Positions 3,001 to 11,442 of a DNA stretch of 11,442 nucleotides are shown here, piece after piece. The position numbers are program-made. This stretch comes from Sulfurimonadaceae bacterium (lineage in GTDB: Bacteria > Campylobacterota > Campylobacteria > Campylobacterales > Sulfurimonadaceae), in assembly GCA_041548245.1 (NCBI GenBank), contig JBFESZ010000070.1:1-11442 (forward strand). Reading direction: 5' to 3'. How positions within the stretch are numbered: position 1 is the first letter of the stretch; the number at the start of each line of letters is the position of its first letter.

Positions 3001-6000
3001 TACTGGCTCAAATTAATTACAATATCTGGATAAAAGGACAATAGAGAATGAAAGATTTTAACAACCTGGATGATTTAAAAGCAGAGTTCGACAAGTTTGT
3101 GTCAGAACGATGTATTACTGAAGAACAAAAGCAGATCGCTGCAGAGGAAGAGGACAATGAAGAGACGCCTGCCTTTGTGGATGAGTTGAGTGAAAAACTG
3201 CTTGCACCGGCTCATTCTGGCGTTTACCTTTCGCGTCTGGATATCAAACGTGTGGCAGAAGCCATTGATGAGTCTTTGCCGATTAAAGAACGCAAACGTA
3301 TGATCAAAGCACTTATGCGACATACAACGACGAAAGAGTTCTTGCGCAATGCATTTGGTGAGTTCAACAAGCATATCAATGGACGTCTGGCGATCTACCA
3401 AGAACTGGCAGAAGCATTTCCCTCTTCTAAATATATTTTCGACGAGTTTGAGGCTAAGGCTGAAAAGACTAAAAAGATGTTCGAAAGAATGATAGAGGAC
3501 TTTGAAGAGTTCAATCCGGCTGAAGATTTGGAACCAGTTCTGTTCTAAGCACATGATTAAGAAGGCTATCCCTTCTTTTTCGGTAGTTTTAGTATTACAA
3601 ATGTAATTGCGGCCATAATAAGCAGAACGATTAAATTATAGCTTTCATTGTCCAGACTTTCCATGATTTATCCTTTTAAGACATCTATCACTGTTGCTAC
3701 GACTATGACCAAGGCAAGGACGGAAGCAGAGTACTCTACGCGTTTGATTTTAGTATAAAACTCTTCGAGTTTAGGATCTTGAAGGTCTGAAAACCTCTTC
3801 TTGCGGATGTAGTTCATCGCATTTTTAAAACTCTCATCACCAAACTGGATCTTCCATCGAGGCTGACCGAGACTTTTCCAAATATTTCCATGTTCTTTCT
3901 TGAGTTGAAAGAAGAAGGCGTTGGTAAAGTAGATGTGCATAGACATCAGTGTTAAAAAGAGCAGGGCAAACCCCATGATGATCAAATTTTCCATAGGTGC
4001 CATTGTACAGTACTTAGTTTAAAATGTTAGAATGGTTCTGTTTATTATATTATTATCGGAGAATTGCTCATGATAAGAGAGATTTGTAATCCTGTGATCA
4101 AGACATTGGTATCATCATTGCGAGACACAAGGACAGATGCGCTTCGTTTTCGTCATATCGTCAAAGAGATCACGAAGATATTATTATATGAAGCATTGCA
4201 AAACTCTGTTTTTTTATCAAAACGGGTTCAGACATGGAGAGGTGAAGAACTGCACGATGTATTGGATGAATCCTCTCTCATTGTGGTGACAGTTTTACGA
4301 GCCGGGATGCCAATGCTGGAGTCCGTTATGGAAACCTTGCCGCAGGTAACGGGTGGCTTTTTAGCAATGAAACGTGATGAGACAAGGCACGAAAGCAAAC
4401 TTTATTATGACAGGTTACCTGATTGTCATGGTAAGAGAGTGGTTCTTGTTGATGTGATGTTGGCAACGGGCGGATCGTTATGTGATGCCATTGATATCAT
4501 CAAGCAAAAAGGTGCTCAAGAGATTTTGAGCCTAAATGTCATTGGCGCACCGGAAGGCTTAAAAAAGGTACAGTCACTCCATCCAGATGTCAACATCTTT
4601 ATTTCACAGATTGATGAGAAGCTTAATGATAATAAATTTATTATTCCCGGTCTTGGCGATGCAGGCGATAGGGAATATAATACAGCTGAATAAAAAGGAG
4701 AAACATGAGATATATCACAGTTGTCCTAGTACTGACACTGCTTACACAGCTTCAAGCGGGTTGGTTGGACTTAGCGGAAGAACTGGTCAATGAAAAGGTA
4801 CCAGCAAGTGGGCAGTCTTTGGATAATATGCAAACTGATGCCTTAAAAGCCGCCTTAGAGCAGGGAATAGAGTATGCTGTCAACACTCTTGGAAAGAAGG
4901 ATGGTTATTTCAATGATGCGAAGGCGAAGATAAATTTGCCAGAGAATATCCAAAAGATGGAGGCTTTAATCCGTAAAAGTGGCGGAGATAAGATGGTTGA
5001 TGATCTTGTCGTATCAATGAACAATGCTGCGACTCAGGCTGCTCCTAAAACGACTAAAATCTTCTTCTCGGCGATAAAGAAGATGACAATATCTGATGCT
5101 CAAAAGATTCTTAAAAGCGATGAAAACGCTTTGACACAATATTTTAAAGAGCATACCAATACCGAACTTGAACAAGAGATAGAACCTATTATCAAAGAGA
5201 TGATGGATAAAAACAAGGTGAGCTATTATTATAAACAGGTCAGAGGCTATTATGATGAGAACAGCGCTTCTATCCCCTATAAAGAGAGTTTGTACAGCTT
5301 GGGAAAATCATATGGTTTGGATACGTACCTGCCGCCAAAAGACCTGGATGAGTACGTGACAAAAAAAGCGATATTAGGTCTGTTTATCAAGATAGAAGAG
5401 GAAGAGAAAAAAATCAGAGCCAACCCGTTGGTGCAAGAGTCTAAGTTAATACGCGATGTTTTCGGATCAATTTAGAGCTTGCATTGTAATTTTAGATAGA
5501 ATACAAAAAAAAATGATGATGGTAAAGATATGAAATCAGCTTTTGACGATAATGAAGCAAAAAAGTATAAGAGTGACCTGGCAATGCGGGTCTATACCTC
5601 CCAGCTTTTAGGAAGGGATATGGACCTTGTTCTGCATGGGGGAGGGAATACCTCGCTAAAGAGTGATAAGTATCTCTATGTCAAGGGAAGCGGGTGGAAC
5701 CTTGATACCATAGAAGAGCCTGGATTTCCTGCAGTAGATCTGGAAGTGCTCAAGGCGATGGCAAAGCTTGATCACTTAAGCGATACCGATATGGTTGCGC
5801 AGCAACGTGAAGCCCTTTTGGACAAAAGCTCACCCAACCCATCAATCGAAGCGATTCTGCATGCGATCATTCCTTTTAAATATGTCGATCATACCCACGC
5901 TGATGCGGTAGTGACTATTTCCAATACACCTGATGGTAAAAAACGCCTGGAAGAGCTCTATGGTCCTAATATGCTTATCATTGATTATGTCATGCCCGGC

Positions 6001-9000: not shown

Positions 9001-11442
9001 CATTATTGAAAAGACCGATTTTGAAATACTTGGGTGTGCTCAGTATATTTTCAGAGAGTTCTCCCGGATATTGAAAGATCATTATAATGTCGCTTACATC
9101 AATGTGGGTGATGATATGGGCTTTGAAAACCTAAAAAAAGTCAAAATGTCCTATCGCCCGTTCAAGCTTGTGCCAAAATACACAATTTATCAAAAATGAT
9201 CATAAGAGACGCTCTGAGCAGGGATGTAAAAGCACTTTCAATTCTTGAAAAGAGTCTTTTTGACACGGCAAACTATGCCCTCTGTGCTCAATCTTTTTAT
9301 TATCACATCCGCCATAATATAGTACTGGTGGCACAATCAAATGAGGGTGTCATCTCAGGCTATCTTTTACTCCTTGTGCGTCGGCGTAAGGCGAAACTGT
9401 ATTCGATAGGGGTCCATACCGCCTATAGAGGTAGGGGAGTCGCTGGTTCTCTTTTGGAGACGATGGATACTCGGTTGTCACAGCAGGGGTTTAGGCATGT
9501 TGTCTTGGAAGTACGATGTGATAATGAGAATGCGATCGACTTGTATTCAAAAAATGGTTTTAAGGTTGTCAAAACGCTTCAATGCTTTTATAAAGATGGT
9601 GCTGATGCCTATCTTATGGAGAAAGAGTATGCCGACACGTCATTATCTTAAACTCTTTAAAGAATTCAACAAGAGCAAACTATTGCGTCTTCAGGTATGG
9701 GTTCTTTTTTTAACTACCTATATCGACTGGGTCATTATGCCTTTTGTGACAAAACTTGAGGGAACTCATCTTCCGGTGTTCGCTATCAGTCTGTATATGC
9801 TTCTTGGGGCATCTGACGGTTTTGTTCAGCCTCTTTTTAAAAAGGTCAAGATATACAACATCTATCTTTTTGTTATTATCCTTGATTCGATACAGATTTT
9901 AAGTTATTGGCTCGCACATTACAATATTGTCATCTTTACTTATGCAATATTGAGCATCTTCACACTGCAGGCGATTACATTTGAAATCTCACGTATTCAT
10001 ACCATTGATTTTATGAAAGAAGAGATAGAGCTTAAAGAGTATCTGATGCTGAGGTCTTTTATCGTCTCATCAGCGATCATTGCGGGTGCAATTACAGCTA
10101 TAGTTATCGATGCTTTGGATGTGACCTTGCAGACAACGCTAATGATATTGGCGTTACTTGGGTTTCTTGCAATCATTATCGAGTACAGGTTATATGTGAA
10201 ATTTCATGACATTGTTCAAGAAGAGATTATAATCGAACGAGATAGAAAGCTTCTTAATGAGAAGATCTCACTTTAAAAGAGAGTCTCGACTTAAAGTCCT
10301 GGAGCTCTCCACATAGAAGTGGTGACACCTTTGTCCACCAGTTGCAAAGAAGAGGAATATGCTTCTTTCCATATTGCGGCTACATCTTGATAGAGTGAGG
10401 CATTTTCTTGATTGGGAAGATAGCTCTTCTCCCACTGAATCAGTGCTTTAGAAGCTTGTACAATTGAGTCATATTCACCTGTAGCTACACCGCAGGCAAA
10501 GGCACCTCCAAGTGCGGTCGCTTCATTGACTTTAGGGATACGAATCTCTCTCTGGGTGACATCGGCCAGGATTTGGGACCATAAAGCTCCTTTGGAAGCA
10601 CCTCCTGCAAAGGTGATGCACTGAGCTTGTGCTCCAGTAAACTCAAAGATTGATTCAAGGTTTAACATGGAGACGATGGCAGCGTTTTCTTCTAGTGAAC
10701 GAAACATGGCCGCTTTGGCATCACTCTGGTTTATATTGAGATTTAAAAAGGAGGGGGCAGCATGATACCATTTTCCATATTTCATCGTATCGGAAAAGAT
10801 AGGCAATATTCCGTGTGATCCAGCAGGTACCAAAGAAGCCTCAGCTTCAAGAAGACTGTAAGGATCTATACCTGCTTCTTTAGCTCGTACCATTTCTTCA
10901 TGGCAGAAGTTGTCGCGAAACCAGCGCATGACCATACCGGAGAAAAAACTTATTCCTTCGGCTTGGGATATCCCTTCGATGACATGTGGATTGACACGGA
11001 TATTCATGTTAGGATGGGTAAGAGGCTTATCCATGTTTACCAGTTGTTGCCAGAATGTTCCACCGAGAATAGCAGTCTGATTGCTTTCTACGACTCCCAG
11101 TCCGGCAGTTCCAAGCTGTACATCGCCCCCTCCCATAACCACAGGTGTACCTGCTATCAGTCCAGTCTCTTTTGCAGCTTGTATGCTCACTTCGCCCATG
11201 TGTGTCCCAGTCTCATATACAGGTGGAAAGATGTCATCTTTAATCCCCACCTTCGCGGCCATTGTTTTGTCCCATTGGCGTGTTTTAAGAGAAAAAACAC
11301 CCGTAGTACCTGCATTGGAAGGATCAGTCGCGATCACATTGCAGAGCTTAGCAAGTACCCAGTCACTGATCATTGAGATATTGGCTGTTCTCTCGTAGAG
11401 TGAAGGTCTGTTCTGTTTTACCCAAAGCAGACGGGGAAGGGC

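Follow-up and report, generated by a model that had tools for sequence, protein, structure and literature searches.

What does an LsrK-type AI-2 kinase do in a bacterium in which LsrB, LsrR and LsrF are not found? We have addressed this question for contig C70 of a Sulfurimonadaceae genome, the window of this analysis (the whole stretch of 11,442 nucleotides), where the genome-wide survey's note had proposed that a kinase, an ABM-family protein and a class II aldolase consume DPD (AI-2) in the absence of the Lsr operon. All three ORFs were recovered where that note had placed them (Table 1), and, as it had also described, in the source genome they are interrupted by unrelated genes; they also differ in orientation. 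The 281-aa gene next to the aldolase has no Pfam or NCBIfam match; its Atlas features match acetyltransferase-like clusters at 0.95–0.97, 22% of the top cluster carrying PF00583, and only close relatives carry a copy of the gene. The three genes inserted next to the kinase are found in L008 and L010, and are missing from L009, L011, L013, and L014, where the kinase adjoins the ABM gene. The promoter scan (17 vs 13.6) and the terminator scan (5 vs 3.3) both stay at chance level.

Table 1. Proposed module members and intervening genes on contig C70.
Feature	Position	Strand	Remarks
Class II (metal) aldolase, proposed LsrF replacement	5530..6711	+	393 aa; NF006196 455 bits, profile 1-401 of 657
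Probable GNAT-fold gene, outside module	6731..7576	+	281 aa; sits between aldolase and ABM gene
ABM-family protein, candidate P-DPD isomerase	7647..7934	-	95 aa; PF03992 57 bits
Three inserted genes (PF09924 protein, RimI-like GNAT, membrane protein), outside module	8219..10276	+	between ABM gene and kinase
LsrK-type AI-2 (DPD) kinase, C-terminal 383 aa	10291..11442	-	5' end open; NF008187 600 bits

Judged by its sequence, the kinase of C70 is a true LsrK. The partial protein passes the 528-bit cut-off of NCBIfam NF008187, the next FGGY model scores 157 bits, and the AI-2 kinase structure 5ya0 is matched at E 3.5e-139, all of which reproduces the scores given earlier; full-length relatives reach 730–890 bits on NF008187. 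The N-terminus is encoded by C20:1-606, and both pieces match 5ya0. Since the 201-bp overlap of the two contigs is only 98.0% identical, the C70-C20 join is likely rather than assembled. The accessible text of PMC8016206 gives ten residues for the DPD pocket of LsrK, predicted from a homology model with no liganded structure. All ten (T21, S91, M92, R93, D253, V254, F276, Q278, E308, and I310) are found across our two kinase pieces and are invariant in 107/107 orphan kinase sequences; among 13 canonical LsrKs each site is conserved in 12 or in all 13, while only the Thr and the Asp are kept in all of seven other FGGY kinases. In the kinase tree, which like the aldolase tree below is a quick search with no bootstrap and with long-branch warnings, the orphan kinases form a clade (35 rows, SH-aLRT 91) inside the LsrK family, beside the canonical kinases.

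We have then considered how the genes are distributed among 221 Campylobacterales genomes. The kinase is present in 66 and the aldolase in 63; 63/66 kinase genomes have the aldolase and 63/63 aldolase genomes have the kinase, so that the earlier claim that every aldolase genome holds the kinase is borne out in the larger sample. The pairing spans 16 family codes besides the source genome and is patchy within families. Around the best 80 of 258 kinase loci, with a reach of 4 kb, we have found the aldolase in 50, the ABM gene in 40, both in 35, and luxS in none, very close to the 49, 42, 36, and 0 counted before. Of the 54 short aldolases, 20 are no more than 150 bp from the kinase, 18 more no further than 7 kb, and 16 are on another contig; none is far away on the same contig. 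The module occurs across the order, as the survey's note had said of Campylobacterota, but it is not limited to that phylum, for gammaproteobacterial carriers exist too.

The absence of the Lsr parts is to be stated with some care. LsrR (PF04198) was detected in 0/66 kinase genomes of the order and in 0/3 gammaproteobacterial carriers, and the LsrB query found 0/66, while the positive controls were detected in both searches (G364 and G426 for LsrB). In the available portion of PMC2561040, too, lsrB is not found in the epsilonproteobacteria examined. The claimed lack of the transporter, LsrR and LsrF holds at the level of LsrB, LsrR and LsrF, but across the order not for the DeoC/LsrF fold itself: PF01791 is absent from 53/66 kinase genomes, including the source genome, and present in 13. 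Four of these 13 were scanned as possible hidden LsrFs, and all are PRK06852 aldolases (474–493 bits; LsrF model 46–53 vs 297); the 12 loci that were read lie mostly among glycolytic genes. LsrF was likewise found in 0/3 gammaproteobacterial aldolase-kinase genomes. The canonical LsrK genomes show the reverse, with LsrF in 13/13 and this aldolase clade in 0/13. Since LsrF and the aldolase are mutually exclusive among LsrK genomes, the aldolase looks like a non-orthologous replacement of LsrF.

By profile alignment, the protein corresponds to the first 400 aa of a RhaEW-like aldolase/short-chain dehydrogenase (SDR) family whose SDR domain it has lost, a point that the survey's note does not make. 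Its stop codon falls just where the NF006196 match ends, and with no C-terminal SDR it stays below the whole-protein cut-offs (455 vs 831 bits for the PRK08324 type; 196 vs 568 for RhaEW). It belongs to the class II aldolase superfamily according to PF00596 (66.7 bits), the fold (Z 15–31 to members), three metal histidines, and a Gly-Asn phosphate site; in the predicted model (pLDDT 94.7) the closest structure is 3m4r (Z 30.7, rmsd 1.5, 203 aligned), and among solved structures none extends over the second domain (residues about 225–393). G39-N40, H121, H123, and H184 are invariant in 96/96 aligned sequences. The HTH metal motif, noted before in 44 of 44 sequences, is thus invariant in its two histidines but not in its middle Thr (92/96). 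Fused and short forms have the same active-site residues, and this suggests that both work by the same chemistry, with release of DHAP. Among motifs that are otherwise invariant, the two forms differ most clearly at 280, where the TPDH of the fused form (Asp in 30/30) becomes TPEH in the short one (Glu in 59/62).

All 91 SDR-less aldolases form one clade in the tree (SH-aLRT 97), and further decayed tails, with neither SDR motif, adjoin LsrK in L207 and L208. No SDR partner stands beside the aldolase; other SDRs of the source genome score at most 63 bits, and the candidates for a separate partner look like FabG/FabI-type fatty-acid enzymes by context. An apparent ABM-aldolase fusion in L056 is an artefact whose linker is a run of N. 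Intact fused forms neighbour mtnK-mtnA, genes of 5-deoxyribose salvage: mtnK is present in 8/8 genomes with them against 15/55 others (Fisher p 1.3e-4, which is overstated because kin are not independent). Outside Campylobacterota, LsrK was found in 0/10 genomes with the fused form, and mtnA in 5/5 of those tested. Some intact fused forms directly adjoin the kinase (L028, L044, L045, and G213), and L020 carries mtnK-mtnA-fused aldolase side by side with short aldolase-kinase. It is the loss of the dehydrogenase domain that says most about the chemistry, and the main rival arises from it as well.

As had been noted before, the ABM protein matches the LsrG model NF007791 only weakly (26.6 bits vs a cut-off of 135, relatives 27–32), and it matches other ABM proteins better. 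It is 25–31% identical to six LsrG proteins of canonical operons; E55, H66, H71, and Y72 are invariant in 66 ABMs and matched in 6/6 LsrGs. Of the LsrG residues which we take to form the catalytic pocket (Asn25, Glu54, His65, and His70), the Glu and both His are kept in 66/66, and the Asn is replaced by Met26 in 66/66. The Glu/His residues may be general ABM features. Considering also that 50/52 ABM carriers hold the kinase, we treat the protein as a candidate LsrG analogue, not an orthologue. A cupin, which the survey's note does not mention, occurs in 25/66 kinase genomes and 0/14 kinase-free ones, including 14/16 kinase genomes that lack the ABM gene, and is 46% and 35% identical to cupins adjoining lsrK in two canonical operons. 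These patterns support the suggestion that a cupin common to canonical lsr operons fills in for the missing ABM gene. A cupin-type neighbour of lsrK, possibly the same gene, is also noted in section 13 of PMC3420918.

Based on the above analyses, we propose that DPD, the sugar by-product of Pfs and LuxS at each recycling of SAH, would be salvaged with no transporter and no regulator. The kinase, by its orthology, would very probably phosphorylate DPD at C5. The ABM protein, elsewhere the cupin, may then speed the isomerisation of P-DPD to the 2,4-dione P-HPD/P-TPO as LsrG does, which, argued by analogy, is the weakest step. The metal aldolase would bind the DHAP half of P-HPD like a ketose-1-phosphate and split P-HPD between C2 and C3 into DHAP and acetate, in a retro-Claisen reaction in which water is the acceptor and neither dehydrogenase nor CoA is required. 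P-HPD can be regarded as 5-deoxyribulose-1-phosphate two electrons more oxidised at the methyl-side carbon, and the fused parent (aldolase plus NAD-dependent aldehyde dehydrogenase, by mtnK-mtnA) would give the same two products from 5-deoxyribulose-1-phosphate. The SDR may thus have been lost repeatedly beside LsrK because a dehydrogenase would be redundant on P-HPD. On the other hand, DrdA-type stand-alone aldolases work without a fused dehydrogenase, so the SDR loss is no proof of an aldehyde-free product.

As background, the sections available of three papers state that RhaEW does not form DHAP without NAD+ (PMC3870299), that the equilibrium of aldol cleavage lies toward condensation (PMC6079011), and that LsrF uses CoA (PMC8016206). 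In the literature consulted on the topic, we found no characterised class II aldolase with such a hydrolysis, and the partly accessible papers that our search returned include none describing a kinase-ABM/cupin-aldolase module. Overall, the LsrF exclusion, the intact LsrK pocket and the cupin filling in support the survey's inference: a DPD route of whatever chemistry is likely, and for the chemistry given here, i.e., LsrK, isomerisation, and CoA-free cleavage to DHAP and acetate, we would put the probability at about one half.

The strongest competitor keeps the DPD route and changes its end, with acetyl transfer to CoA as in LsrF, P-DPD isomerisation by the aldolase, or cleavage into other fragments. 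The co-occurrence and exclusion data fit it equally well, the CoA use of LsrF is a precedent, and members of the fold that tie at Z 15–19 include epimerases, dehydratases, decarboxylases, and oxygenases; but the active-site identity of fused and short forms speaks against it, and for CoA transfer no CoA-binding feature was noticed in the aldolase, absent a dedicated search. We consider it possible, though on the unlikely side. A different substrate is proposed by 5-deoxypentose salvage. Here radical-SAM reactions would supply 5-deoxyribose for the cupin or ABM protein to isomerise, the substrate of the LsrK-like kinase would have become 5-deoxyribulose, and the aldolase would yield DHAP and acetaldehyde, the whole replacing MtnK/MtnA. 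Cupins do include aldose-ketose isomerases, the parent enzyme neighbours mtnK-mtnA, and the source genome (96% complete) has Pfs with no match to mtnK or mtnA. Also, mqnE, a radical SAM gene, lies within 4 kb in 22 and metK in 12 of the best 80 of 258 kinase loci, but this proximity is largely Sulfurimonas/Sulfurovum synteny. The kinase pocket is unchanged from LsrK, the rhamnulokinase model, that of a C1 ketose kinase, gives only 49 bits, the cupin relatives flank lsrK in canonical operons, and kinase and MtnK coexist (24/31 mtnK genomes have the kinase, and L020 has both systems), all of which makes this substrate clearly unlikely.

Could the genes be merely co-inherited, a remnant of lsr doing no more than trapping DPD as P-DPD, next to an aldolase unrelated to it? 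The interrupted, differently facing genes of the source genome and the 16 short aldolases on other contigs would agree with this, but the linkage is retained under many different gene orders and in two phyla, the kinase is present in every one of the 63 aldolase genomes, and the insertions are missing from close relatives; we regard it as very unlikely. Rhamnose catabolism, after the database label 'rhamnose utilization protein RhaD', has almost no chance of being correct: it draws on the RhaEW homology and on the JGI names of several homologues, but the RhaEW score is far under the cut-off, the RhaA isomerase was found in 0/5 genomes tested, where LsrK is the sole FGGY kinase, as it is in the source genome, and more distant 700-aa proteins, probably of RhaEW type, form a far outgroup in the tree.

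The proximity of luxS adds less than had been thought. As luxS is near-universal (214/221 Campylobacterales genomes, at least 148 of which do without the kinase), its co-presence is uninformative and was rejected as evidence for the route; only adjacency counts. The adjacency to the aldolase reported for several genera is real but was overweighted: luxS comes within 4 kb of the aldolase at 18 loci, and in the aldolase tree all of these belong to a single branch of 19 rows, mostly Sulfuricurvum, so they probably reflect one event, not many. Three arrangements were seen, i.e., luxS divergent from the aldolase (this branch), aldolase-kinase-cupin-luxS-metK (G034), and ABM-luxS (G059). In the source genome luxS lies on contig C57, and its absence near the kinase loci counted above agrees with the earlier observation.

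Compared with the Lsr system (LsrK-LsrG-LsrF; accessible part of PMC8016206), the proposed module shares an orthologous kinase, an ABM-fold protein, the proposed end in DHAP and a two-carbon unit, and in some operons an accessory cupin; it differs in that no LsrB, LsrR or LsrF is found, the final step would belong to a metal-dependent class II aldolase, and the ABM protein, not an LsrG orthologue, seems replaceable by the cupin. RhaEW/YuxG (rhamnulose-1-phosphate aldolase plus lactaldehyde dehydrogenase; TIGR02632; PMC3870299, in part) has a homologous two-domain aldolase with the three metal histidines and the Gly-Asn phosphate motif, whereas the present aldolase has no dehydrogenase domain, falls in another subfamily (closest PRK08324.2-4), and is partnered by LsrK, with rha genes not found. 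The DHAP shunt and Drd pathways (MtnK-MtnA-Ald2, DrdK-DrdI-DrdA; PMC6079011, PMC10986504, PMC13474568, each in part) likewise combine kinase, isomerase and class II aldolase to turn a SAM by-product into DHAP, and fused relatives of our aldolase follow mtnK-mtnA. Unlike them, the present kinase is FGGY/LsrK and not MtnK, the proposed substrate comes from SAH via LuxS, and the aldolase, at 390 aa, is of RhaE type, whereas theirs, at 210 aa, is of FucA type (18–19% identity to 6btd/6btg). OtnC/YgbL, a 3-oxo-tetronate 4-phosphate decarboxylase of class II aldolase fold, forms no aldehyde when it releases DHAP from its substrate, which is of beta-dicarbonyl type. It serves as a chemical precedent and is not to be read as a relative of the aldolase (6voq: Z 18.2, rmsd 3.7, 181 aligned, 16% identity, tied with other fold members).

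Outside vibrios and enterics, it has long been asked whether the AI-2 made by LuxS serves as a signal or is metabolic waste. We tentatively suggest that loss of the dehydrogenase, more than once, turned a DHAP-shunt aldolase/dehydrogenase into a metal-dependent beta-diketone hydrolase that needs no CoA, and that this enzyme and LsrK together make up a housekeeping branch of the SAM cycle in about 30% of the Campylobacterales sampled. The turnover of AI-2 would then be pure recovery of a by-product that is neither imported nor sensed, and the fused PRK08324 proteins would be DHAP-shunt aldolases, so far unrecognised, that bring their own aldehyde dehydrogenase. If true, P-DPD would have a second route of breakdown and the class II aldolase fold perhaps a reaction new to it, and functions could be assigned to a family widely mislabelled as 'rhamnose' and to the cupin of canonical lsr operons, which has had no assignment. 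A catabolic module without receptor or regulator makes the signal-versus-waste question testable in environmental genera that can be cultured, among them Sulfurimonas, Sulfuricurvum, Hydrogenovibrio, and Ferrimonas; carriers are predicted to release less AI-2 than their luxS-only kin. Many sulfur-oxidising and related bacteria, it appears from their genes, probably break down AI-2 as metabolic waste, with a final enzyme unlike that of the textbook pathway.

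We have searched 221 Campylobacterales genomes, i.e., 220 drawn at a completeness of at least 90% plus this genome, and have found the kinase in 66, the aldolase in 63, the ABM gene in 52, luxS in 214 and mtnK over cut-off in 31. All 63 genomes with the aldolase also hold the kinase. The genes travel together, as stated in the genome-wide survey's note; five families, with 5–19 genomes each, have none of them. Kinase without aldolase was seen in three genomes only, all of them MAGs of 240–360 contigs with cut kinases. Of 54 short aldolases (those without a short-chain dehydrogenase, SDR), 38 have the kinase within 7 kb and 16 are on contigs other than that of the kinase. 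The module is also found in Hydrogenovibrio, Thiomicrospira, Ferrimonas marina and Alteromonadaceae. No description of it was found in a literature search that did not extend to most subscription papers and bioRxiv supplements, so an earlier mention in print is possible.

The positions given in that note for the aldolase, ABM and kinase reading frames agree with an ORF check of the window, and its family scores for the three proteins were reproduced on repeat profile searches. The kinase gene, carried whole (518 aa) by close relatives, is open at the contig edge, and its N-terminal part is found on contig C20; since the 201-bp overlap is only 98.0% identical, the assembly may be a mixture of two near-identical strains. 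Gene searches of this genome's contigs gave no match for mtnK, mtnA or the cupin. The three-gene block between the ABM gene and the kinase also occurs in loci L008 and L010. The gene order of positions 1–3548 is conserved among close relatives, and the shikimate-dehydrogenase-like protein there scores far below cut-off.

Features of the window, of this genome and of compared loci
Feature	Location	Remark
End of probable molybdo-enzyme gene, TorD-like chaperone, polyferredoxin, shikimate-dehydrogenase-like protein, 166-aa unknown	window 1-3548	
Aldolase	window 5530-6711	
281-aa gene	window 6731-7576	GNAT fold probable, without a match in Pfam; follows the aldolase immediately in four close relatives
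ABM protein	window 7647-7934	
PF09924 protein, RimI-like acetyltransferase, membrane protein	window 8219-10276	insertion of three genes that separates ABM from kinase
Kinase	window 10291-11442	
luxS	C57 of this genome	gene search
Pfs	C14 of this genome	gene search
Cupin homologues in canonical lsr operons	L256:1255-1593, L257:1092-1451	immediately follow lsrK; no named family scores above cut-off
Second class II aldolase-fold gene	G000:C11:7065-7589 (L265)	PRK05834 hypothetical protein, 267 bits vs cut-off 139

Judged by its sequence, the orphan kinase is LsrK. Even the window fragment passes the NCBIfam autoinducer-2 kinase cut-off, and no FGGY kinase other than LsrK was found in this genome or in four complete genomes searched. 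All ten residues listed for the modelled DPD pocket of LsrK in PMC8016206 are found in the two pieces of the window kinase and are invariant in 107 orphan kinase sequences (some possibly one protein with two starts); only two are kept throughout seven other FGGY kinases. A fast tree (51 rows; long-branch warnings apply), which gives no firm root within the family, places the 35 orphan kinases together (SH-aLRT 91) among the LsrK proteins, with 11 canonical-operon kinases as their neighbours. L086, a record labelled Helicobacter pylori, also carries the kinase; this label is doubtful, since the sequence pairs at 100 with one from Arcobacteraceae. Genome G020, with 8% contamination, has two LsrK copies over cut-off (C36 and C50).

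The aldolase appears to stand in place of LsrF. Neither LsrR nor LsrB was found in the 66 kinase genomes; DeoC-fold proteins occur in 13, and the four scanned resemble another aldolase family, not LsrF. Among 251 genomes of the order containing Ferrimonas, LsrK is over cut-off in 14; 13 of these have adjacent lsrR plus LsrF, and all 13 lack this aldolase. The fourteenth, the chosen centre of the sample, has the aldolase and no LsrF, and two more carriers, selected for having the aldolase, likewise have luxS and no LsrF.

For the isomerase step there are two candidates, the ABM protein and a 125-aa cupin. The former, 25–31% identical to LsrG, keeps Glu55, His66, His71 and Tyr72 but lacks the LsrG Asn, and is at best an LsrG analogue. 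The cupin is present in 25 of 66 kinase genomes versus 0 of 14 kinase-free ones, and in 14 of the 16 kinase genomes without the ABM gene; 64 of the 66 have one or both. It never accompanies an ABM protein at least 66% identical to that of the window (0/30 genomes) and accompanies a more divergent one in 11 of 20, a pattern hinting at two ABM subtypes. Cupin homologues directly follow lsrK in 2 of 13 canonical loci; PMC3420918 places a "mannose-6-phosphate isomerase", possibly of the same family, consistently beside lsrK.

The aldolase is a shortened form of a bifunctional enzyme, for its alignment covers positions 1–401 of the 657-position aldolase/SDR model and stops there. The predicted structure (pLDDT 94.7) has a class II aldolase domain, nearest to the uncharacterised 3m4r (Z 30.7), and a second domain without a good structural match. 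It keeps the residues that PMC3870299 describes as the metal and phosphate sites of RhaE (G39, N40, H121, H123 and H184 in 96/96 aligned), with E107 and D120 as candidate general base. In the aldolase tree (143 rows plus 4 outgroup, alignments below 330 residues dropped), the 91 sequences without SDR all fall into a single clade. In the best 80 of 175 aldolase-centred loci, 21 of the 43 non-fused forms but 0 of the 37 fused ones have the kinase within 4 kb. Within the order, mtnK accompanies intact fused forms in 8/8 genomes (in six of them in one cluster with the aldolase) and is present in 15/55 others; outside the phylum, LsrK is found in 0/10 fused-form genomes, and five tested for mtnA all have it, with mtnK over cut-off in none. 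Tails without SDR motifs appear separately in L207 and L208 (beside the kinase), L188 (genome with kinase, without mtnK) and L122 (beside mtnA). L020 has both forms in tandem (ABM-metK-mtnK-mtnA-fused aldolase-short aldolase-kinase-mqnE).

Full-length PRK08324-type aldolase/SDR genes follow mtnK-mtnA in L181, L182, L183, L184, L187, L020 and L123, suggesting an undescribed DHAP-shunt aldolase with built-in aldehyde dehydrogenase. Fused genes in Bacteroidota (L113, L114, L115) have a conserved PRK02399 protein and a 290-aa partner, and those in gammaproteobacteria (L150, L154, L156, L160) have conserved neighbours resembling glycerol-phosphate enzymes, as read from sequence starts.

In RhaEW the aldehyde is oxidised, and DHAP is not made without NAD+ (PMC3870299). 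The fused relatives would convert 5-deoxyribulose-1-phosphate to DHAP and acetate. LsrF splits P-HPD, which LsrG produces, into DHAP and acetyl-CoA (PMC8016206). P-HPD has the skeleton of 5-deoxyribulose-1-phosphate in an already oxidised state; the short aldolase would cleave it with water to DHAP and acetate directly, making the dehydrogenase dispensable. The loss of this domain thus points to such chemistry on P-HPD. Two observations count against the argument: the free-standing DrdA is active without a fused dehydrogenase (PMC6079011), and intact fused forms adjoin the kinase in L028, L044, L045 and G213. The genomic data are equally compatible with a transfer of the acetyl group to CoA, or with some other reaction of P-DPD, as a possible, if less favoured, outcome.

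A 5-deoxyribose route is the serious alternative as to substrate, though an unlikely one, as the LsrK pocket residues are unchanged in orphan kinases and 24 of 31 mtnK genomes retain the kinase. Passive linkage of genes without a common pathway fits the data poorly and seems more improbable still. Rhamnose use, implied by one of the two database labels of the aldolase (rhamnose protein RhaD, the other being class II aldolase), is the least credible; it also fits poorly, and rhamnose genes were not found in five genomes where RhaA and a second FGGY kinase were sought.

As for DPD breakdown by the module, the adjacency to luxS put forward in the survey's note is real, but the link is thinner than claimed: nearly all genomes have luxS, and a single aldolase branch accounts for most of the adjacent cases. 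Two further arrangements are aldolase-kinase-cupin-luxS-metK on a single strand in G034 and ABM-luxS in G059. The decay of ribulose bisphosphate has been described as yielding P-DPD as a by-product too, and may offer the module another source of substrate in Calvin-cycle autotrophs such as Hydrogenovibrio/Thiomicrospira (L200-L203, L214). Overall, the module is real and well coupled and would work like Lsr catabolism without being the Lsr system; the DPD consumed would be either the cell's own alone or additionally DPD taken up via a non-Lsr carrier.
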